DNA of 64,000 bases from Escherichia phage vB_EcoM_WFH, in the sequence record NC_048194.1; one strand, 5' to 3'. The notes beneath the pieces were generated by a model. The model did not search any database and was not told the origin of the DNA. It saw only the letters and a list, made by a program, of their open reading frames with translations. This document shows, piece after piece, positions 1 through 14,077 of this stretch (the first letter of the stretch is position 1; the number at the start of each line of letters is the position of its first letter). A program made the position numbers and the translations under genes.

Positions 1-135
1 ATTTTGAATTAATTTAAATTAATTTTTTTCTACATCCTCATACTTATACTAAACTTATATTTATACGTATTATCCGTAAGATATAAGTAAAAACAAAGAC
101 TTGCGGCAATACGGATGATACGTCATGATACGCTT
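1..135. repeat. AT-rich tract plus iteron-like ATCCGTA / TACGGATGATACG motifs; partial second copy of the element at 16040-16320
   Basis: Read directly: 1-60 is almost pure A/T; ATCCGTA at 72-78, TACGGATGATACG at 110-122, ATGATACG at 125-132; same 9-mer family as the 16-kb element. Confidence 0.5.
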
Positions 136-279
136 CAACCAGCCAGCAGCGGCTAAGTCATTGATTTGCATAACAAGCGGCGAAAGGGATGGATTTCTTT
201 TATGCGTATCAAACAGTACACCACGCACCACGGTCCGATATTCATTCAGCACTATGATTTATGTACTTTTACAGCCAAT

Positions 280-308
280 TTGAACATCAATCTGCACTTG
301 AATATAAT
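280..308 (+). promoter_or_regulatory. sigma70-like promoter upstream of CDS 361-834
   Basis: TTGAAC (280-285), 17-nt spacer, TATAAT (303-308). Confidence 0.4.
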
Positions 309-360
309 GTTCAATCATTGTATAATTCACACTATTAATTTGCACTATGGGATTTGCACT

Positions 361-834
361 ATGAGTCAAGATTATGTAGCAATGCCTGAAGACTTTGAAG
401 ACCCGCGATTTGCAGAGCATAATCAGGCATTATTCGATGAGTTCATTGACCTTGTTATTCAGGGCCATGACATGCGCGCAGCTTTTGCACTAGTATTTGG
501 CATGGAGGTTGCGACCGATAACTACACTGGCCAGCGAATCCTGTGCACTCAGCGCAACCCGTACTACAAGATGCGCTACAAAAAGCGCATGGAAGAAATG
601 CCATTGAAGGAATTGTGGAGCGTAAAAAGTTCCATCCACAATTTAGTGAAGCTTGTGCGTGATCCAGAAGTCGCGGCGTCAGCCAAGCTTAATGCCATTC
701 GTGAACTGAATATCATCTACGGCATCACGATGATTGATGAAAATGGCAATAGTAAAATGGGCCGTTCCATGGACGATTTCTACAAGGATTTTGGAGAGGC
801 AGCCAAAGAGGGTGAGCAATTCTCCCGCCACTAG
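361..834 (+). CDS. Hypothetical HTH-like DNA-binding protein, possibly small terminase-like
   Basis: ORF 166-834 trimmed to the ATG at 361, which sits inside an ATTTGCACTAT copy; segment FDEFIDLVIQGHDMRAAFALVFG resembles small-terminase N-terminal HTHs; function not established. Confidence 0.45.
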   Translation: MSQDYVAMPEDFEDPRFAEHNQALFDEFIDLVIQGHDMRAAFALVFGMEVATDNYTGQRILCTQRNPYYKMRYKKRMEEMPLKELWSVKSSIHNLVKLVRDPEVAASAKLNAIRELNIIYGITMIDENGNSKMGRSMDDFYKDFGEAAKEGEQFSRH

Positions 835-853
835 CCAATTTGCACTATAAAAC

Positions 854-887
854 GGCCCTAGAACACATTTTCTCCACTTCTAGGGCC
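854..887. terminator. Stem-loop GGCCCTAGAA / TTCTAGGGCC with 14-nt loop, candidate intrinsic terminator
   Basis: Perfect 10-bp inverted repeat; T-rich flank only when read on the minus strand. Confidence 0.35.
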
Positions 888-1262
888 GTTGGTAATACGA
901 CGGGGAAGGCTGCAACCATGAACGCGTTAGAAAGTGTATTATTATAAGTCATCTTTTAGTCACTTTACGTAACAATTTACGACCTTCCGCCGTCCAGTCG
1001 AACGACTCCACCAGCAGATTTGCACTATAACCTAAGACGATGCGCCCCTTCTCGTTATCGACCCGCCAACAAGTCTCGAATAGCATTCGATTTGCACTAT
1101 TAACTATCGCCGCAACGCGCGTTGGGTAAGCGCAATTTGCACTATGGTCGTAAAGGGATAAGGTGCGACCACTGCCGATGGACAACGTAGCGATGAGAAT
1201 AAGCGTATTCATAAGCCACCAATTTGCACTATGAAAAGCGACCCCGAAGGGCCGCCATTCGA

Positions 1263-1889
1263 TTAGATAATCTGGAAGGTGTAGGACTTGTTGCCGAACT
1301 CGAAGTTCAAGCGCCCAGCTTCCTTAAGCTTCATGCGGAAGCGAATATGTTTGCTATCCGGTAAGCCCAGCGCGGCGAACGCTACGCGGACCGATTTGAA
1401 CTCGCCTACACCCTCGACCATAACGGCGTTACGGGTGAGACGCTTTTGCGCCACTTCCTTGTTATCCCAACTTTTTGCAATACCTTCGCTATTAGAACGG
1501 CGATGGGAAGGAGTTCCATTTTGCACTACGCAATTTGCACTATCGTTTAGGCCGCTCTTAACGAAGGCTTCATACTCTTCGTCGGTCATCGCGTCGAGTT
1601 CTTCCTGAGTCGGCTCGGCCTTTTTAACGACCGCACGCGCCTTATGCGTTTTTACATCGCTGGACACTTCCTCGCGCGGCTTCGCGTCGGGGATGGGCAA
1701 TTCGTTGGACGGCTCATCGAGCGCGTTTAAGGACTCGATTAACGCGATGACGCGAGTCTCAGCGGTGCGACGGTCCACAAACTTCTTAATCGGTTTTGAG
1801 CCGGAGTTGGCATTATAGAATGCAACGAGGTCGGCGGTCTTAGTTGCGATAACGTCGCCGCTAGTAGAAAAGCGATTTAAGCTAACCAT
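1263..1889 (-). CDS. Hypothetical protein, first gene of the CG-rich island
   Basis: 208-aa ORF; consensus RBS AGGAG before the ATG at 1889; two ATTTGCACTAT copies lie inside it. Confidence 0.6.
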   Translation of the reverse strand: MVSLNRFSTSGDVIATKTADLVAFYNANSGSKPIKKFVDRRTAETRVIALIESLNALDEPSNELPIPDAKPREEVSSDVKTHKARAVVKKAEPTQEELDAMTDEEYEAFVKSGLNDSANCVVQNGTPSHRRSNSEGIAKSWDNKEVAQKRLTRNAVMVEGVGEFKSVRVAFAALGLPDSKHIRFRMKLKEAGRLNFEFGNKSYTFQII

Positions 1890-1969
1890 AATAAACTCCT
1901 ATTTGTTAGGGCGCTAGGCGCGAAAGAATTTTATTAAAGCGCCGCGCACGACGCTCTAAAAATCCTCTC

Positions 1970-2284
1970 TTACTCTTCGTCGTCTTCGATTAATTCGAAG
2001 GCGAAGGCATAAGCTTTGCTATCGTAATTAACTAAAACGGCGAGTTCGAACTCGTTAATAAACGCCGTTTTACCGCATAAATTTAATTCCGCATCGACTT
2101 CGAAGAATCCGTTTTCGTCGCGCTCTAAGCGAGAAGCAGCGAGTTGCTCGATTACCGTCGCGTCGTTAATTTCTTCGCCTAAGCGAACGCCGGAGAATTT
2201 CGCGAGAATTTCGCCGTAAGTAAGCGTAACACCCTGGACTTCGGCGGTTGCGTTTTCGAGGGTGAAGCGGGTAACGATAGCCAT
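1970..2284 (-). CDS. Small strongly acidic protein (paralog family member A)
   Basis: 104 aa, net charge about -15, ends ELIEDDEE; RBS AGGAG; driven by the minus-strand promoter cassette at 2353-2380. Confidence 0.65.
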   Translation of the reverse strand: MAIVTRFTLENATAEVQGVTLTYGEILAKFSGVRLGEEINDATVIEQLAASRLERDENGFFEVDAELNLCGKTAFINEFELAVLVNYDSKAYAFAFELIEDDEE

Positions 2285-2352
2285 TTTAAACTCCTAGTTG
2301 GGAGAGGCGTTAACGACCTATTCGTTAACTCATCCCGTCCCGATATGAGTAC

Positions 2353-2380
2353 ATTATAATATAGTGTAGAAAAAAGTAAA
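2353..2380 (-). promoter_or_regulatory. sigma70-type promoter cassette, copy 1 (leftward)
   Basis: On the minus strand TTTACT, 16-nt spacer containing CTACACT, TATAAT; leader hairpin GAGTTAACGAATAGGTCGTTAAC matches the leader of copy 3. Confidence 0.6.
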
Positions 2381-2424
2381 GCACTTTTTCGATAAAAATG
2401 CGATAAATTATTTTATCTTTTTTC

Positions 2425-2452
2425 TTTACTTCTTCGTACACTCGCGTATACT
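2425..2452 (+). promoter_or_regulatory. sigma70-type promoter cassette, copy 2
   Basis: TTTACT (2425-2430), 16-nt spacer TCTTCGTACACTCGCG, TATACT (2447-2452). Confidence 0.6.
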
Positions 2453-2508
2453 TGTTTATATCGAGACGGGCGATGGCCCTTTCTTCTACTAGCATCGGGA
2501 GCTTTATT

Positions 2509-2811
2509 ATGACTACTTTAATCTCTTCCATCCTTACTTACGACGAAGACCGCTTAACCGTTCGCTCTCTTATCGCCGCCGTTAACGCGGAACTAGAATC
2601 TAGCGCCATCAAGGTCCGTGCCGTTGCCTTCGTCGGCCTTTCCTTCGACGATATTAAGTATGCAGAGTATAGCGCCATTCGCGTTGTTACTACCGACGAT
2701 AACGCCGTTACCCTTATCGAGACGGTTACGCCGCGCGGCGAAGCGTTAATTATCGTCGAGTATATCGACGTAGAAGGCGATAAAGCTTATAAATATTTTA
2801 TCGCAGAATAA
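2509..2811 (+). CDS. Small acidic protein (paralog family member B)
   Basis: ORF 2452-2811 trimmed to the ATG at 2509 after GGGAG; about 100 aa, net charge about -8; C-terminal DKAYKYF resembles SKAYAFAF of member A. Confidence 0.6.
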   Translation: MTTLISSILTYDEDRLTVRSLIAAVNAELESSAIKVRAVAFVGLSFDDIKYAEYSAIRVVTTDDNAVTLIETVTPRGEALIIVEYIDVEGDKAYKYFIAE

Positions 2812-2821
2812 CGAAAAGTGC

Positions 2822-2850
2822 TTTACTTCTTCGTACACTAAGACTATAAT
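2822..2850 (+). promoter_or_regulatory. sigma70-type promoter cassette, copy 3
   Basis: TTTACT (2822-2827), 17-nt spacer TCTTCGTACACTAAGAC, TATAAT (2845-2850); followed by leader hairpin GGTAGCG-AATAGGT-CGCTACC and RBS AGGAGA. Confidence 0.65.
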
Positions 2851-2917
2851 GTTTTATATCGAGAGGGGATGAGGTAGCGAATAGGTCGCTACCCTCCCGA
2901 CTAACTAGGAGAATATT

Positions 2918-3208
2918 ATGATTACTTTAGCCGCTATCCGTTCCGCTCGCGTCGAAACTTCCGAAAACTCTAACGTATTTGGCGAAAAACTTAAAAACGT
3001 TTATCTCTTTAACGTAGATGCGACTATCGAAGAGCTTCATAGTCCTATCGATTTTAGCGAATTTACGGAACTCGAAGAGGAAGATATTACTACCTTCCGC
3101 GTTACTATCGAAGGTAAGGTTTATTTTGCTACGGAGTTCGGCGGCGAATATCTCGCGGTATCCGAAGGCGAAGGCCGTTACTCTTTCTTTAAAATCGTCT
3201 CCTTATAA
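2918..3208 (+). CDS. Small acidic protein (paralog family member C)
   Basis: 96 aa, net charge about -10 (ELEEEDITT); RBS AGGAGA. Confidence 0.65.
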   Translation: MITLAAIRSARVETSENSNVFGEKLKNVYLFNVDATIEELHSPIDFSEFTELEEEDITTFRVTIEGKVYFATEFGGEYLAVSEGEGRYSFFKIVSL

Positions 3209-3228
3209 TACCCTTCCGTTACTAATAG

Positions 3229-3254
3229 GCCGCGCTTAGTCGCGGCTTTTCTTC
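3229..3254 (+). terminator. Rho-independent terminator
   Basis: GCCGCG-CTTAGT-CGCGGC followed by TTTTCTTCG, immediately after the CDS ending at 3208. Confidence 0.6.
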
Positions 3255-3372
3255 GTCCCTATCTCGATGCGCTTCTCCGCGAAAACTCCTTTATCCTTCC
3301 CTTCGTCGTCGCATAATCTTCGTCGAGATGCGCCTTAGTTCGCATAACAGGTATTACGTTAAATGGAGAACA

Positions 3373-3448
3373 TCGCGTAAGTCCTTGTTTTATATAGACA
3401 CCTATATCGGACCGTTAGGGAGGGTCGCGCAAGTCGTTGTTTTATAAA
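3373..3448 (+). repeat. Imperfect 24-bp direct repeat pair in a non-coding region
   Basis: TCGCGTAAGTCCTTGTTTTATATA (3373-3396) and TCGCGCAAGTCGTTGTTTTATAAA (3425-3448). Confidence 0.55.
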
Positions 3449-3571
3449 GGCGCAAAACTTTCCCTTCGTTCCGAACTAAAACGAGAAATATGCCGACCCT
3501 TCGCCCGAAAATAGTACGCATGCGAAATTACATGTATCTAGAATAATCCCCACCGATATTATCCTACACGC

Positions 3572-3629
3572 AATCATTAGCTTTCGAATCATTATGCTTC
3601 ATACTATTATGCGTCGAATCATTCGCTTT
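3572..3629 (+). repeat. Three direct copies of a 14-mer, GAATCATT(A/C)NGCTT
   Basis: Copies at about 3572, 3586 and 3616. Confidence 0.55.
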
Positions 3630-3723
3630 CTAATTGTAACGCTGGAAACTGTAACGGCGATTGATTATTGCGTTCGTGTGGTTTTTAGGGCATGGGTCTT
3701 TTGGTGCGTTTTGGTACTTGATG

Positions 3724-3836
3724 AAATTTGCAGTACACTAATCAAAATACGACACATTTGGTCCACTAACTTTTCAAAGAAAAAGTCCTAGACAGTACCG
3801 TACTATTTTGTACCCACAGTAAATTTGCAGTACACT
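3724..3836 (+). repeat. Two identical 16-mers AAATTTGCAGTACACT, 97 bp apart
   Basis: 3724-3739 and 3821-3836; the GTACACT core also sits in the spacers of promoter cassettes 2 and 3. Confidence 0.6.
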
Positions 3837-3905
3837 CCTGCGCGGCAGGCAAAAGAAAGGGCCGCCACAGCGACCCACGATTCACGGTTAAATCAGCAAC
3901 ACCCA

Positions 3906-4286
3906 CTATTCACTCTTATGGGCATCACCAAAGCCATCCGCAATCTGGCTGATCAATGATTCAATGGACACAGTTTTACCAATTGATCGAGCGGTAATAG
4001 CAAGCATATTATCAATCAAACCATGATTGGATGCATATGGTCCAGGTTTTGAATCATCTTCATGACAACCAAAAAGCTGATCGCGAAGACTTTCAAGAGA
4101 ACGCTCAATATTTTCCAGCTTCTCTTCTAAATCGGATTGGCGACGTAAAACCCATGTTAAGTCGCGGTTGCCGACTTCCAATCCATCATAATCGCAAGAT
4201 GGAACGTTAATTTTGATACTTCCACCAAAGGCCATTCCGCTGCCTTTAGCACATGTGCCGTGAATGGAATCATTCTTATTTGACAT
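3906..4286 (-). CDS. Hypothetical protein with a coiled-coil segment
   Basis: ORF 3906-4316 trimmed to the ATG preceded by AAAGGT; segment DLEEKLENIERSLESLRDQL. Confidence 0.5.
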   Translation of the reverse strand: MSNKNDSIHGTCAKGSGMAFGGSIKINVPSCDYDGLEVGNRDLTWVLRRQSDLEEKLENIERSLESLRDQLFGCHEDDSKPGPYASNHGLIDNMLAITARSIGKTVSIESLISQIADGFGDAHKSE

Positions 4287-9422: not shown

Positions 9423-10883
9423 ATGAATAAAATATTAACACATAATTGGAAAGTCATGTACCAGTTGAATCCTGCTTTAAGAGAAGTCTGGAAGACGAAA
9501 GCGCGATACAAAGTCATATACGGCGGTCGTGCATCTTCCAAATCGCACGATGCCGCTGGTTTTGCTATTTATTTGGCGGCAAACTTCAAATTAAAATTCC
9601 TTTGCGTTCGACAATTCCAGAACAAGATTTCTGAATCAGTATATACGCTATTAAAAGATAAAATAGAGATTTCTGATTTTAAAGACGAGTTCAACTTATT
9701 AAAAAACTCTATTGAACACAAAAGAACAAAATCTGAATTTTTATTTTACGGTATCGCACGCAACGTTGACGAAATCAAATCAACAGAAGGTGTTGATGTT
9801 CTTTGGCTTGAAGAAGCGCATGCACTGACTGAAGAGCAATGGGACATTATTGAGCCGACAATTCGTAAGGAAGGGTCCGAAATATGGATCATATTTAACC
9901 CTGATGAAGAGGCTGATTTCGTCTACCAGAACTTTGTTATGCGACCGCCGAAAAATGCCATCGTTAAGAAGATTAACTGGCAGGACAATCCATTCTTGTC
10001 GCAAACAATGCTGGATGTTATCGCTGGCATGTATGAGCGCGACCCGAAAAAGGCAGAACACGTTTATGGCGGAGTGCCGAAGACAGGTGGCGATAAGTCG
10101 GTCATCAACCGTGCATTCGTCAAAGCCGCGCTAAACCTCCACAAACACCCTACGCTGGGATGGAGCTTGTCAGGGTCTAACCGTATAGGCTTCGACGTGG
10201 CGGACGACGGCGACGACTTAAACGCCACAGCGTTTGTCACAGGCAACGTATTACGTGGCATCAAGACATGGGAAGGTCTGGAAGATGAATTGCTTAAGTC
10301 CGCAAGCGGAGTCTGGAAAGACGCATTGACATTCGGCGCATCAATCACCTATGACGCCATCGGTGTTGGTGCATTTGCTGGTTCAAAATTTGATGAGCTT
10401 AATGAGTATGCAATCCATGAAAATCCAACATTCCCAAGAATCGAATTTAATGCGTTCAACGCGCAAGGTGCTGTTGATGATCCTGATGACGTCTTCCTTG
10501 AGTTACCACACGTTGAAATACTCAATAAAGACCATTTCGCAAACATAAAAGCGCAAAAATGGACTGAGATTGCCGAACGATTCAGAAAGACATATGAGTA
10601 TGCGACAGGGCAAGCCGTATATCCGACCGATGAGTTGATTTCCATCGACACAGACGGCATCCCAGAACTTGGTATTCCCGCTTGGTCTGCGGAAGAAATT
10701 GAGACGTTTCTTTTTGAGATGTCAGCACCGCGCAAAGACACGTCTGTACTTGGCAAGTTCAAAGTTGAATCGAAAAAGGATATGGCAAAGCGTGGAGTCA
10801 AATCGCCTAACAAAGCGGACGCAGCAATCATGGCATTGATGAAACCAATTGTTGCAGCATCCGGCTTCTTCTCTAACCTTTAA
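9423..10883 (+). CDS. terL: Terminase large subunit
   Basis: Walker A GGRASSKSH near the N-terminus, Walker B-like VLWLEEAH, nuclease-type C-terminal half; 486 aa; portal follows. Confidence 0.9.
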   Translation: MNKILTHNWKVMYQLNPALREVWKTKARYKVIYGGRASSKSHDAAGFAIYLAANFKLKFLCVRQFQNKISESVYTLLKDKIEISDFKDEFNLLKNSIEHKRTKSEFLFYGIARNVDEIKSTEGVDVLWLEEAHALTEEQWDIIEPTIRKEGSEIWIIFNPDEEADFVYQNFVMRPPKNAIVKKINWQDNPFLSQTMLDVIAGMYERDPKKAEHVYGGVPKTGGDKSVINRAFVKAALNLHKHPTLGWSLSGSNRIGFDVADDGDDLNATAFVTGNVLRGIKTWEGLEDELLKSASGVWKDALTFGASITYDAIGVGAFAGSKFDELNEYAIHENPTFPRIEFNAFNAQGAVDDPDDVFLELPHVEILNKDHFANIKAQKWTEIAERFRKTYEYATGQAVYPTDELISIDTDGIPELGIPAWSAEEIETFLFEMSAPRKDTSVLGKFKVESKKDMAKRGVKSPNKADAAIMALMKPIVAASGFFSNL

Positions 10884-11663: not shown

Positions 11664-11701
11664 ATAGATTGATTCCCTTTCACTGTCAGGTGGCGTTAAC
11701 A

Positions 11702-14077
11702 ATGAAAATTCTTGGCATAAAACTCTGGGAGAAGACGCAACCAGAAGCCGAACCAGCGGAGATGCCGCCAGGCGACCCATTGGCACCGTTTGAACGCCTT
11801 GAAAGGCGCGGCAGCGGTCAACGCTGGGAAAAGACTGAAAGCAATCGACCGACCTTTAAAACGGTTGATGACTTCCCTTTATATGAGCCTGATATTAATG
11901 GCGATGGTGTTGCAATCATAAAAGGTCGTTCAGTCGATTCCGCAACAGTATCCAAAAAGGTTATGGATAATGCCTTAAAGAACATCAGTTCAGAAGGGCA
12001 AGTCAACCCATACACAGTACCTATTCAACTTCAAAACTGGTATTTGTCACAGTCATTCATCGGCTATCAAGCTTGTGCCATCATCGCACAGCATTGGCTG
12101 GTGAACAAGGCATGTTCCATGGTAGGCCGCGATGCGGTCCGTAAAGGTTGGGAAGTCAAATCCAGTTCTGAGTCAGAATTGTCAGTACAGGCAAGCGAAC
12201 GCCTAAAGCAAATTGATAAAGAATTTAATATCAAAGAGCACTTAGTTGAAGCCGAACGATTCAAAAATATTTTTGGTATCCGCGTCATCATATTTGATGT
12301 GCGTAGCGATGACCCAGAATATTACAGCAAGCCTTTTAACATTGATGGCGTGACAAAGGGGTCTTATAAGGGAATCATTCAGGTTGACCCTTATTGGATG
12401 ATGCCGTTTCTGACGTCTGAAAACACCGCCGACCCTGCATCACAGCACTTCTATGATCCAGAATACTGGGTGATCAGCGGACAACGTTATCATCGCAGCC
12501 ACCTAATCATCTTGCGCAATGATGAGCCAGCTGATATTCTCAAGCCAACTTATATTTACGGCGGCATTCCTCTGACTCAGCAGATTTATGAACGCATCTA
12601 TGCCGCTGAACGTACCGCTAACGAAGCGCCATTGCTGGCAATGTCCAAGCGTACAACCACGCTGCGGACAGACGTTGACAAGGCGATTGCCAATGAGCGG
12701 TCTTTTGCAGAACGTCTGATGATGTGGATCAAGTACCGCGACAACTATGCAGTCAAAGTGCTTGGCCAAAAAGAAGAGATGGACCAGTTTGACATTAACT
12801 TGTCAGACTTCGACAGCATCATCATGAACCAGTACCAGCTTGTGGCCGCAATCGCAAAAGTTCCGTCGACCAAACTGCTTGGGACTTCGCCAAAAGGCTT
12901 TAACGCCACTGGTGAATTCGAGATGGTCAGCTATCACGAAGAGTTGGAAACGTGCCAGCAGCATGACCTGACAAAAATTCTCGACCGCCATTACAAAATC
13001 CTTCTCAAATCAGAAGGGGTGGATGTCGATGTTAAGGTTGCATGGGAACCAGTTGGCTCACTTACTGCTACTCAACTTGCAGAAATCAATGATAAGCGAG
13101 CCAACACTGGCAAAACTCTTATTGATGCTGGCGTCATTTCTCCTGATGAAGAGCGCGACCGCATCAAAGACGACAAAAACAGCGGCTACAACCGTCTGCC
13201 GGAAGACGCAGCAGAAGAAACCCCAGGGATGTCTCCAGAGAATATGGCATTGCTTGGCAAGTCTGCTGGTGAAGTCCTGCAAGGTAAGGCCGATATTGAA
13301 CAGGCGAAAGCTGATGTCGTTAAGATGGGCGGCCAGTTCTATAGCGAAACAGGTATTATGCCAGAGGGTGCCGCGCGTGGTGAGTTGGCGGAAAACCCTG
13401 ACAAAGCGCCTGTCGAAATCAACATGGACGATACCGATGATGAATCAAGCCATCAGGTTGATGTCCTAACGCAGTTGAAAGAAGGGCTGGAGGGTATTGC
13501 GGATTACTACCTGAAAGAAGGTCAGGATGTGGATTTTGACCCTCAAAAAGATTCACGGTCGGTGCAACCGTCTACCCTTCCAAGCGTTAAAGGACACGTC
13601 GTCAACTTACGCCACAACGTGGGTAAAATGGACGCAGCATCATTACCTAAGATGAAGTTGCACGGAATGATTCTTGGCATTGAGAATCCGCGAAACAGCA
13701 TTCGTAGAGGAAACAGCCTTGACGGTGAATGGGCCGTGAAGATGCCGCACCACTACGGATTCATCAAGGGCACCAAGGGCGCAGACGGTGATGAAGTCGA
13801 CTGCTTTGTGGGTCCAAATCTGAAGTCGCCGAAAGTCTTTATCGTGAACCAAAACGATAACTACTCTGGCGAGTTTGATGAACACAAGTGTATGCTTGGA
13901 TTCGATTCAGCAGAAGAAGCGAAAGAAGCTTATCAAGCATCATTTGGTAACGGTTGGAACGGATTCGACTCAATCCACGAATTAGATGTGAACTCATTCA
14001 AGGAGTGGTTGAAGGGTGATTGCTCTCAAGCATACGGAGCACTCAATAATCCTACTAATTCACCGAAGCAAGGTTGA
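11702..14077 (+). CDS. Portal protein with a C-terminal extension carrying an inorganic-pyrophosphatase-type signature
   Basis: Position between terL and MuF; ORF 11669-14077 trimmed to the ATG after AGGTGG; C-terminal about 150 aa contains YGFIKGTKGADGDEVDCFV (D-x-D-x-x-D pattern) and AEEAKEAYQASF. Confidence 0.7.
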   Translation: MKILGIKLWEKTQPEAEPAEMPPGDPLAPFERLERRGSGQRWEKTESNRPTFKTVDDFPLYEPDINGDGVAIIKGRSVDSATVSKKVMDNALKNISSEGQVNPYTVPIQLQNWYLSQSFIGYQACAIIAQHWLVNKACSMVGRDAVRKGWEVKSSSESELSVQASERLKQIDKEFNIKEHLVEAERFKNIFGIRVIIFDVRSDDPEYYSKPFNIDGVTKGSYKGIIQVDPYWMMPFLTSENTADPASQHFYDPEYWVISGQRYHRSHLIILRNDEPADILKPTYIYGGIPLTQQIYERIYAAERTANEAPLLAMSKRTTTLRTDVDKAIANERSFAERLMMWIKYRDNYAVKVLGQKEEMDQFDINLSDFDSIIMNQYQLVAAIAKVPSTKLLGTSPKGFNATGEFEMVSYHEELETCQQHDLTKILDRHYKILLKSEGVDVDVKVAWEPVGSLTATQLAEINDKRANTGKTLIDAGVISPDEERDRIKDDKNSGYNRLPEDAAEETPGMSPENMALLGKSAGEVLQGKADIEQAKADVVKMGGQFYSETGIMPEGAARGELAENPDKAPVEINMDDTDDESSHQVDVLTQLKEGLEGIADYYLKEGQDVDFDPQKDSRSVQPSTLPSVKGHVVNLRHNVGKMDAASLPKMKLHGMILGIENPRNSIRRGNSLDGEWAVKMPHHYGFIKGTKGADGDEVDCFVGPNLKSPKVFIVNQNDNYSGEFDEHKCMLGFDSAEEAKEAYQASFGNGWNGFDSIHELDVNSFKEWLKGDCSQAYGALNNPTNSPKQG

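Follow-up and report, generated by a model that had tools for sequence, protein, structure and literature searches.

The left end of the genome of Escherichia phage vB_EcoM_WFH (WFH; sequence record NC_048194.1) raises a simple question: why is one short asymmetric word, ATTTGCACTAT, repeated within 1.2 kb around a single gene, and always in the same direction? The gene, a coding sequence (CDS) at positions 361-834 of the 64,000-nucleotide stretch that we analysed (hereafter the window), is homologous to small terminases, and the small terminase subunit (TerS) is the one that recognises the packaging site. The answer that we tentatively favour, giving it a little less than an even chance, is that the repeated words could be recognition sites for this TerS, serving both as packaging signal and as autoregulatory operator of its gene, terS. 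Little is understood of the way in which DNA is recognised and cut in phages that have long exact terminal repeats, and TerS of the PB1/E217 type has a solved structure and no known DNA target. Most likely the recognition site of this family has not been identified previously, and the array described here would be a concrete candidate for it, conserved in a clade, unique in the genome and 11-12 bp long.

A co-oriented array confined to one locus

The word ATTTGCACTAT occurs eight times without mismatch in the window, with copies starting at 338, 352, 838, 1018, 1090, 1135, 1222 and 1533, all of them on the plus strand and none on the minus strand. A previous reading made from the letters alone (the sequence-only reading) had counted nine copies, all on the plus strand. 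The orientation is as it had stated, and the count comes down to eight, since the ninth copy, at 1519-1529, is a variant with two mismatches, TTTTGCACTAC. Two additional degenerate copies, also with two mismatches each, are ATTCACACTAT at 325-335 and TTTTGCACTAG at 483-493. The count against shuffles that the same reading had proposed came out, in the window, clearly in favour of a real cluster: a dinucleotide-preserving shuffle is expected to contain 0.07 exact copies, and the maximum reached in any shuffle was one. Nor is the word found at similar density elsewhere, since matches with at most two mismatches outside 325-1543 are at chance level in the window (24 versus 26.6 expected). A blastn search for prophage or satellite copies of region 280-1600 among 5,426 complete genomes of E. 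coli gave no match. The core GCACTA gives the same picture, with 10 plus-strand copies between 300 and 1600 where its frequency in the remainder of the window predicts 0.14 (Poisson P ~1e-15), and all nine plus-strand copies of GCACTAT lie before position 1545, the other 62 kb having none.

The two tandem pairs that had been noticed before, 338/352 and 1519/1533, share the same 14-nt register, and the spacings along the array are 14, 131, 355, 180, 72, 45, 87, 297 and 14 nt. The flanks of the copies are unrelated, and we therefore regard the copies as separate short sites rather than as leftovers of a longer repeat. The array is also restricted to a single locus: no clustered copies are present elsewhere in the window, in the 3.6 kb by which a 99%-identical relative exceeds it, or elsewhere in the 69.5-kb sequence of phage Kyle. 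Those 3.6 kb hold no further copies at all, apart from the right-hand copy of the repeat. Rfam gave no match at E<=1 on either strand of window 1-4200. When viral and genome contig collections were scanned for two motif copies at most 31 nt apart, a pattern too permissive for collections of that size, the matches listed were chance matches or tandem coding repeats, and among them only phage WFC had a TerS homologue. A full-text search of the literature for the motif and its variants returned, among the matches listed, only unrelated and apparently incidental sequence matches, and the Wifcevirus publications do not mention the motif.

The copies overlie regulatory, intergenic and coding DNA alike. 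The degenerate copy ATTCACACTAT at 325-335 overlaps the last two bases of the -10 hexamer of the terS promoter, an operator-like position. The first exact copy (338-348), which opens the first tandem pair, lies in the terS leader, and the second (352-362) comes after the ribosome-binding site GGGA, its last two bases being the AT of the terS ATG at 361, an overlap that had been recognised from the letters. Inside terS, over codons A-F-A-L-V, lies the degenerate copy TTTTGCACTAG at 483-493; it may be a by-product of coding, and GCACTA is present at the equivalent position in Kyle and in a related lineage, L047. The third exact copy (838-848) starts 4 nt past the terS stop codon, just 5' of a hairpin with a 10-bp stem (855-887) that is a putative terminator in the WFC annotation. 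A second such putative terminator, hairpin 1238-1255, follows the seventh exact copy (1222-1232), which is intergenic. Between the two, exact copies four to six lie antisense in the minus-strand gene 949-1212, where they are read Y-S-A-N (1018-1028), N-S-A-N (1090-1100) and H-S-A-N (1135-1145); the first of these is ATTCGCACTAT in WFC, Eco4M-7, Bas98 and L021, and a copy with the flank of the second (GCACTATTAAC) is also found in Kyle and PA1. The second tandem pair, made up of the variant TTTTGCACTAC at 1519-1529 and the eighth exact copy at 1533-1543 (antisense, read D-S-A-N), lies over the 3' part of the minus-strand gene 1263-1889. The sequence-only reading had placed two copies in this last gene, as is the case, and the three in gene 949-1212 add to them.

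Taken over the array, the sites overlie terS in sense and three other genes in antisense. Gene 949-1212 encodes a small conserved protein of 87 amino-acids with a signal-peptide-like N-terminus; we considered that it might be a spurious open reading frame (ORF) and rejected this, as its product is conserved in Kyle (938-1225, minus strand; BLASTP E=1e-12) and has a homologue in PA1. In the minus-strand genes, the sites read xAT-AGT-GCA-AAT, i.e. (H/N/D/Y)-S-A-N in identical codons, the sole exception being the variant copy at 1519, and the PA1 homologue of gene 949-1212 has four S-A-N triplets of this kind. Because the Ser, Ala and Asn codons are identical at each site, these observations point to a constraint acting at the DNA level, which the proteins would accommodate.

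Recurrence of the array in related phages

Arrays of this kind were found in seven phage lineages whose TerS proteins are 42-70% identical. These lineages are that of the window (genus Wifcevirus), Kyle, PA1, and four obtained through a protein search of public assemblies (L047-L050). Each has 7-14 co-oriented motif copies around terS, always on the terS strand. The Pantoea phages Kyle and PA1 (Kylevirus), with TerS 42-44% identical, have 14 and 13 GCACTA cores in about 1 kb, all on the terS strand, in the same layout as in the window: repeat boundary, terS, small minus-strand genes and the gene for a 208-amino-acid protein. Over 69.5 kb of unique sequence, Kyle has 12 copies of YYGCACTA on this strand, all of them in 475-1476. 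The four assembly lineages (TerS 70, 53, 50 and 45% identical) have 10, 11, 9 and 7 co-oriented cores around terS, respectively. No minus-strand core lies inside the arrays of Kyle, PA1 and L047-L050, whole loci being counted. The 74 plus-strand cores in the array intervals give the consensus R-A-T-T/C-T/C-GCACTA-T/C, with no information beyond these 12 positions. Between lineages, the positions of the sites are mostly unconserved, and what is conserved is their number, their direction and the region that they occupy, from just 5' of terS to the 3' part of the gene for the 208-amino-acid protein, at which the array stops in every lineage. At the terS promoter, TATAAT-NN-(G/A)CACTAT is present in four of the seven lineages (the window, L047, L048 and L049). 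All known hosts of the clade belong to the Enterobacterales (Escherichia, Shigella and Pantoea), and the sister phages that have no motif are phages of Serratia and Salmonella.

Within Wifcevirus, conservation is a weak test because the genomes are ~97% identical: when the replaced tandem pair is set aside, the seven single sites vary in 3 of 77 columns versus 172 of 1364 elsewhere (P=0.019), and with all 99 site columns included, sites and flanks do not differ. The replacement concerns Eco4M-7 and ECML-117, in which a patch of ~30 nt equivalent to window 1517-1545 has been exchanged for unrelated sequence, so that the second tandem pair is lost and the peptide DSANCVVQNG of the 208-amino-acid protein becomes roughly DAPVGANKIA. 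Eco4M-7 has also gained a full motif copy near the equivalent of window position ~245, where the window has only AGCACTAT.

Lineages whose TerS goes without the motif were tested for a directional 9-mer of their own near terS, and only two gave a clear result (P<0.004 in Markov simulations). In E217 the word GTAATTTGG is present four times in 3084-3432, and in the metagenomic phage L037 the word GAACTTGCG is present five times in 3580-3800; both sets lie just 5' of terS and have close pairs 8 or 14 nt apart. These words are candidate sites, in the case of E217 for its TerS. The general rule that every TerS lineage has its own array is therefore not established, and we abandoned it, E217 and L037 alone having reached clear significance. 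As a separate observation, the Serratia phages of the genus Myosmarvirus have a ~25-nt element, AAAAAATAAGCATGCTTTGTATAGG, in three copies directly after terS (MTx, 951-1093; L041, 4526-4620), in the place occupied by the array in Wifcevirus.

Location of the array in the terminal repeat

Over its first 6 kb, the window is 91-99% identical to 36 phage records, all of them of Escherichia or Shigella myoviruses of the genus Wifcevirus. If the end position is transferred from close relatives, position 1 of the window is the physical left end of the genome in this genus of E. coli myoviruses. The records of WFC, Mansfield and Ro157lw start at, or at most ~11 bases from, this position; that of Mansfield (96.5% identical) starts at the very same base, and its PhageTerm-predicted direct terminal repeat (DTR) is 1-3673. 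The Wifcevirus literature gives a terminal repeat of ~3.7 kb for WFC and WFH, and in the near-identical record PQ604604 the first 40 nt of the window reappear 3,701 nt ahead of the record end. On these grounds the left copy of the DTR is placed at 1-3701. Since the window starts at the physical left end, the array sits inside the terminal repeat, in its left 40%, at 325-1543 bp from the end and bracketing terS. The nearest cut site, i.e. the predicted DTR boundary at position 1, is 325-338 bp away from the first copy, and in Kyle the array lies 475-1478 bp from the repeat boundary of that phage.

A few further observations concern the repeat and its borders. The record PQ604604.1 (marked UNVERIFIED) may be chimeric: its right-hand repeat copy, 67583-71283, differs from window 1-3701 at 229 of 3701 positions, while its left-hand copy is 99.3% identical to the window over the first 2 kb. 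Right at the left end, within a boundary region very rich in A/T, 2.3 tandem copies of TTTAAATTAA occupy window 3-25; the boundary in Kyle is A/T-rich too. Just beyond the right boundary of the repeat (~3701), an exact 16-mer, AAATTTGCAGTACACT, is present twice, at 3724-3739 and 3821-3836. At the same distance from the repeat boundary (~3625-3655), Kyle has an element CAGTACACTAATCA(A/G)AAT, the core of which, ACACTA, resembles the array motif. These elements could be a mark of the right-hand boundary or a promoter element.

The small terminase and a residue change that accompanies the motif

The gene bracketed by the array, terS (361-834, plus strand), encodes a protein of 157 amino-acids, which is our candidate for the binder. 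A phmmer search matched residues 3-147 to the TerS decamer of E217 (PDB 7UXE; E=9e-33, 38-39% identity). With an AlphaFold2 monomer model (mean pLDDT 72), Foldseek returned 7UXE as the top match and as the sole significant structural one (E=4e-6, prob 1.00), TerS of PaP3 and then of NV1 coming next. The protein has no Pfam match; it matches phrog_4783, and its counterpart in Mansfield is annotated, via HHpred, as terminase small subunit. By homology, we assign it as a small terminase of the E217 type. As in E217, its gene stands apart from that of the large terminase (TerL), which is found at 9423-10883 (Pfam Terminase_3, E=3e-37), 8.6 kb from terS. A near-consensus sigma70-type promoter is predicted for terS at 298-326 on the plus strand (TTGAAT, 17-nt spacer, TATAAT; 10/12 in a consensus scan), and it is invariant in six Wifcevirus genomes.

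In the TerS tree, the seven motif-bearing lineages all fall into one clade, and a specific residue change accompanies the candidate word. The residue preceding x-N-P-Y-Y is Glu in all 15 motif-less lineages (E217, the Serratia MTx group, Salmonella PCSE1, BcepF1, a FoX7-related Xanthomonas phage, tabernarius and nine metagenomic lineages), and it is Gln, Lys or Arg, followed by Arg, in all seven motif-bearing ones (Q64-R65 in the window). In the AlphaFold2 model, predicted helix 56-65, third in the N-terminal domain and expected to be the recognition helix, has Q64 at its C-terminal end. Losing an acidic residue while acquiring a basic one would be expected if a DNA contact had been gained.

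A candidate recognition array for TerS

How might such an array work? Subunits of the ring-forming TerS would bind the non-palindromic 11-12-bp word R-A-T-T-T-GCACTA-Y through their N-terminal helix-turn-helix domains, within one ring or in several rings; the asymmetry of the site suits one subunit or helix-turn-helix domain per site rather than a dimeric repressor. The bound array would mark the concatemer junction as phage DNA and set the polarity of the terminase, a part that cosB plays for cosN in lambda, and the large subunit would then cut at the nearby repeat boundary, position 1 of the window, and package inward. By means of the copies that cover the -10/+1 region, the leader and the start codon, TerS would repress its own strong sigma70 promoter and so be kept scarce. 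A review lists the known pac site of P22 and cosB site of lambda in or beside the terS gene and reports that too much TerS makes E217 less infective and, in other systems, inhibits packaging. That TerS binds the array, that the array functions in packaging and that terS is autoregulated is what we infer from indirect evidence, namely the identity of TerS, the proximity of the genome end, the uniqueness of the array and its presence in seven lineages. The sequence-only reading had seen in the repeats a protein-binding array, and this evidence fits the pac or cos type that it had named; the partition-like type that it had also listed finds no such match.

Among known systems, the closest analogue in working is lambda cosB (R3, R2 and R1, bound by gpNu1): several TerS-type sites are found a short way in from the genome end, and the cut site comes first, then the sites, then the terS gene (in lambda cosN, cosB and the Nu1 gene), which is the first gene after the end. 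Lambda cosB has three 16-bp sites in ~120 bp, bent by IHF and not all co-directional, whereas the window has ~10 co-oriented sites of 11-12 bp over 1.2 kb, which run through terS and on into other genes. According to a review, lambda TerS binds its sites sequence-specifically. The two phages also differ in their ends, cohesive in lambda and a 3.7-kb terminal repeat in the window. P1 pac and SPP1 pacL/pacR resemble the array in that multiple short repeats, contacted by the small terminase, lie in or next to a terminase gene. For P1 these are seven hexamer repeats that flank the cut. For SPP1, repeats contacted by the small terminase in or by the terminase gene are described in a review. Both are compact headful sites (~160-270 bp) with the cut between clusters of repeats, whereas in the window the nearest terminus lies at a distance of ~325 bp from the array and packaging gives rise to exact terminal repeats. 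The array is set apart from cosB, P1 and SPP1 by its scale, by how strictly its sites are co-oriented, by the three or four genes that they overlie and by the long exact terminal repeat in which it sits. E217 has a homologous TerS (7UXE), likewise encoded apart from terL; unlike the window, it has no GCACTA array, and it has Glu where the TerS of the window has Gln64.

Several points weigh against this interpretation. The first comes from E217 itself, whose TerS showed no appreciable DNA binding in vitro and for which no site is known (according to a review). The second is the dimension of the array, 1.2 kb with irregular spacing of 14-486 bp: it is ten times longer and far looser than any known pac or cosB site, and too dispersed to wrap one ring. 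In addition, a signal of density and polarity would account for the unconserved site positions better than a nucleoprotein complex of fixed geometry does. The tandem pair within gene 1263-1889 can be dispensed with, as its loss from Eco4M-7 and ECML-117 illustrates, and among the motif-less TerS lineages tested, a clear directional 9-mer was seen in E217 and L037 only. An early-type sigma70 promoter is unusual for a packaging gene. Finally, the change from Glu cannot be parted from shared ancestry because the motif-bearing lineages form a single clade and represent one evolutionary event, so that shared ancestry accounts equally well for the coincidence of substitution and motif.

Alternative explanations

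One other possibility, which we consider unlikely, is that the sites form an operator array for a regulator different from TerS, either a clade-specific phage protein or a host factor, which would time or shut off the early region contained in the terminal repeat. The sites at the terS promoter would then be the functional core and, no less doubtfully, the remaining ones would add cooperative or roadblock binding. The promoter-proximal copies are what speaks for it: in four lineages, one copy abuts the -10 hexamer and the leader is covered by a further two or three. A promoter scan also predicts several strong sigma70-type promoters in the repeat region, and the known hosts of the clade, all Enterobacterales, would suit a host factor. 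Yet only two or three of ~11 copies are at the promoter, and the others lie in convergent 3' regions or in genes, far from promoter-like sites, while the sister phages of Serratia and Salmonella do without the motif. Nor is a further DNA-binding protein recognisable nearby: the product of gene 949-1212 looks exported, the genes at 1970-3208 encode acidic proteins, and the conserved 208-amino-acid protein of gene 1263-1889 (phrog_4730) gave nothing significant in sequence searches of PDB and Pfam. We considered this last protein as a binder and judged it unlikely, since it is just as conserved in phages without the motif, its C-terminal domain being found equally in E217, MTx and PCSE1. As to host factors, we know of no E. 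coli regulator with such a site, and of the consensus sequences known to us for the DnaA box, the marbox, the sigma54 -12 element and the TrpR half-site, none fits the motif in register.

It is somewhat less probable still that the array is a polar, density-based signal, read not as a static platform but by a machine that moves in from the genome end, such as a helicase-nuclease like RecBCD or a translocating terminase, and that it manages the survival, recombination or processing of the terminal repeat. The way in which positions turn over, while number, direction and region are kept, follows the logic of Chi or KOPS, and Chi itself is conspicuous in these loci. In Kyle, PA1, MTx, L048 and L049, no other 8-mer next to terS is as over-represented as CCACCAGC, the reverse complement of E. 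coli Chi GCTGGTGG. Kyle has nine copies in 1.7 kb (255-1972) versus ~1 expected per 65 kb, and four to seven copies are found in PA1 (1965-3537), MTx (179-1276), L048 (323-1824) and L049 (411-1836). In Kyle, PA1, L048 and L049 these true Chi arrays are interleaved and co-oriented with the motif, and MTx, a Serratia phage without the motif, has a similar one. The octamer is always on the motif strand and sometimes abuts the motif, as in GCACTACCCACCAGC; from what is known of Chi polarity, RecBCD that enters at the left end would meet the octamer in its active orientation. The single Chi of the window, at 1008-1015 on the plus strand, lies 2 nt ahead of motif copy 1018. A Chi-like octamer, CCACTAGC, is also found across the terS stop codon, at 828-835.

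The array thus shares with Chi a strict polarity, over-representation near a DNA end, a stress on number and orientation over exact position, and an overlay on coding sequence; it differs in its longer word, in having copies at a promoter, where a polar signal would not be expected to have them, and in having no known cognate translocase. The motif itself (reverse complement ATAGTGCAAAT) is unrelated to Chi, and the two are separable because the window and L047 keep the motif with only one and no Chi, respectively. Moreover, its length of 11-12 bp, its invariant 6-bp core and the A/T-rich shoulder on its 5' side give the word the look of a helix-turn-helix site, and to our knowledge no translocase recognises it. 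Were the motif nevertheless a new polar word for the management of ends, a proposal that we find equally doubtful, it would act together with the Chi arrays of sister lineages on survival, on recombination into concatemers or on regeneration of the long repeat, and the TerS-like protein, expressed from the first early-type promoter of the repeat, could have an early role at DNA ends besides packaging.

Improbable, and slightly more so than the previous proposal, is a replication origin, in which the repeats would be iterons and an initiator made by the phage, for instance the primase-helicase of the genes at 55.7-59.8 kb, would bind them. The phage does encode a RepB-type primase and a VapE/D5-like helicase there, the repeats are direct repeats of a short asymmetric word that lie partly in a non-coding convergent zone, and the different directional 9-mers of E217 and L037 are located between the helicase gene and terS. 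However, the spacing is irregular and without the helical phasing of iterons, most copies are within coding sequence, and the array, which brackets terS, lies ~8 kb along the concatemer from the replication genes. Reading 1-2400 by eye, without a formal scan, brought up neither DnaA boxes nor a distinct AT-rich unwinding element.

The sequence-only reading had set promoters aside, and we agree: the copies have no -35/-10 geometry, a promoter scan puts no promoter on them, the predicted promoter (298-326) is 5' of the first copies, and most copies, namely those from 838 onward, face in antisense into genes 949-1212 and 1263-1889. A phage promoter class is also excluded, as the motif is confined to one locus. 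A partition centromere, which that reading had entertained, finds no support, since Pfam and PHROG scans of six neighbouring proteins revealed no partition family and the phage is a virulent myovirus. Such a centromere is exemplified by parC of plasmid R1, ten contiguous 11-bp direct repeats in helical phase next to parM/parR, which are bound by ParR around its own promoter. With ~10 direct repeats of 11 bp that could be both the platform of a machine and an autoregulatory operator, the array resembles parC; its sites, unlike those of parC, are dispersed. Finally, we give practically no credence to a chance or compositional artefact, or to a functionless remnant of an ancient tandem duplication: all that speaks for it is that genomes of the genus diverge little, which alone is no proof of constraint, and against it stand the shuffle and Poisson statistics, the unrelated flanks, and the recurrence of the word at different positions in seven lineages with TerS only 42-70% identical.

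Implications for packaging and genome design

If the TerS interpretation is right, the recognition step in packaging, and possibly the autoregulation of terS, would become addressable in a tractable group of E. coli phages, members of the genus being available in the BASEL collection. Wifcevirus and Pbunavirus phages are in therapeutic use or under consideration for it, and both transducing particles and synthetic genomes require a packaging signal that has been defined. Since the sites overlie coding sequence, recoding of those genes could silently destroy the signal.

Other features of the window

Outside the array locus, the longest ORF at 11669-14077, taken with a TTG start, encodes a portal protein (Phage_portal_3, E=3e-88) that carries a C-terminal inorganic pyrophosphatase domain (InPase, E=3e-46). 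Within the terminal repeat, to the right of the array, divergent early-type promoters with a TTTACT -35 hexamer are found at 2353-2380 (minus strand), 2425-2452 (plus strand) and 2822-2850 (plus strand). An exact 19-mer, CTTTACTTCTTCGTACACT, is present at 2424-2442 and again 397 nt away at 2821-2839, 5' of genes 2509-2811 and 2918-3208, both of which encode acidic proteins. The repeated 19-mer together with the promoters suggests a duplicated promoter-gene cassette within the terminal repeat.

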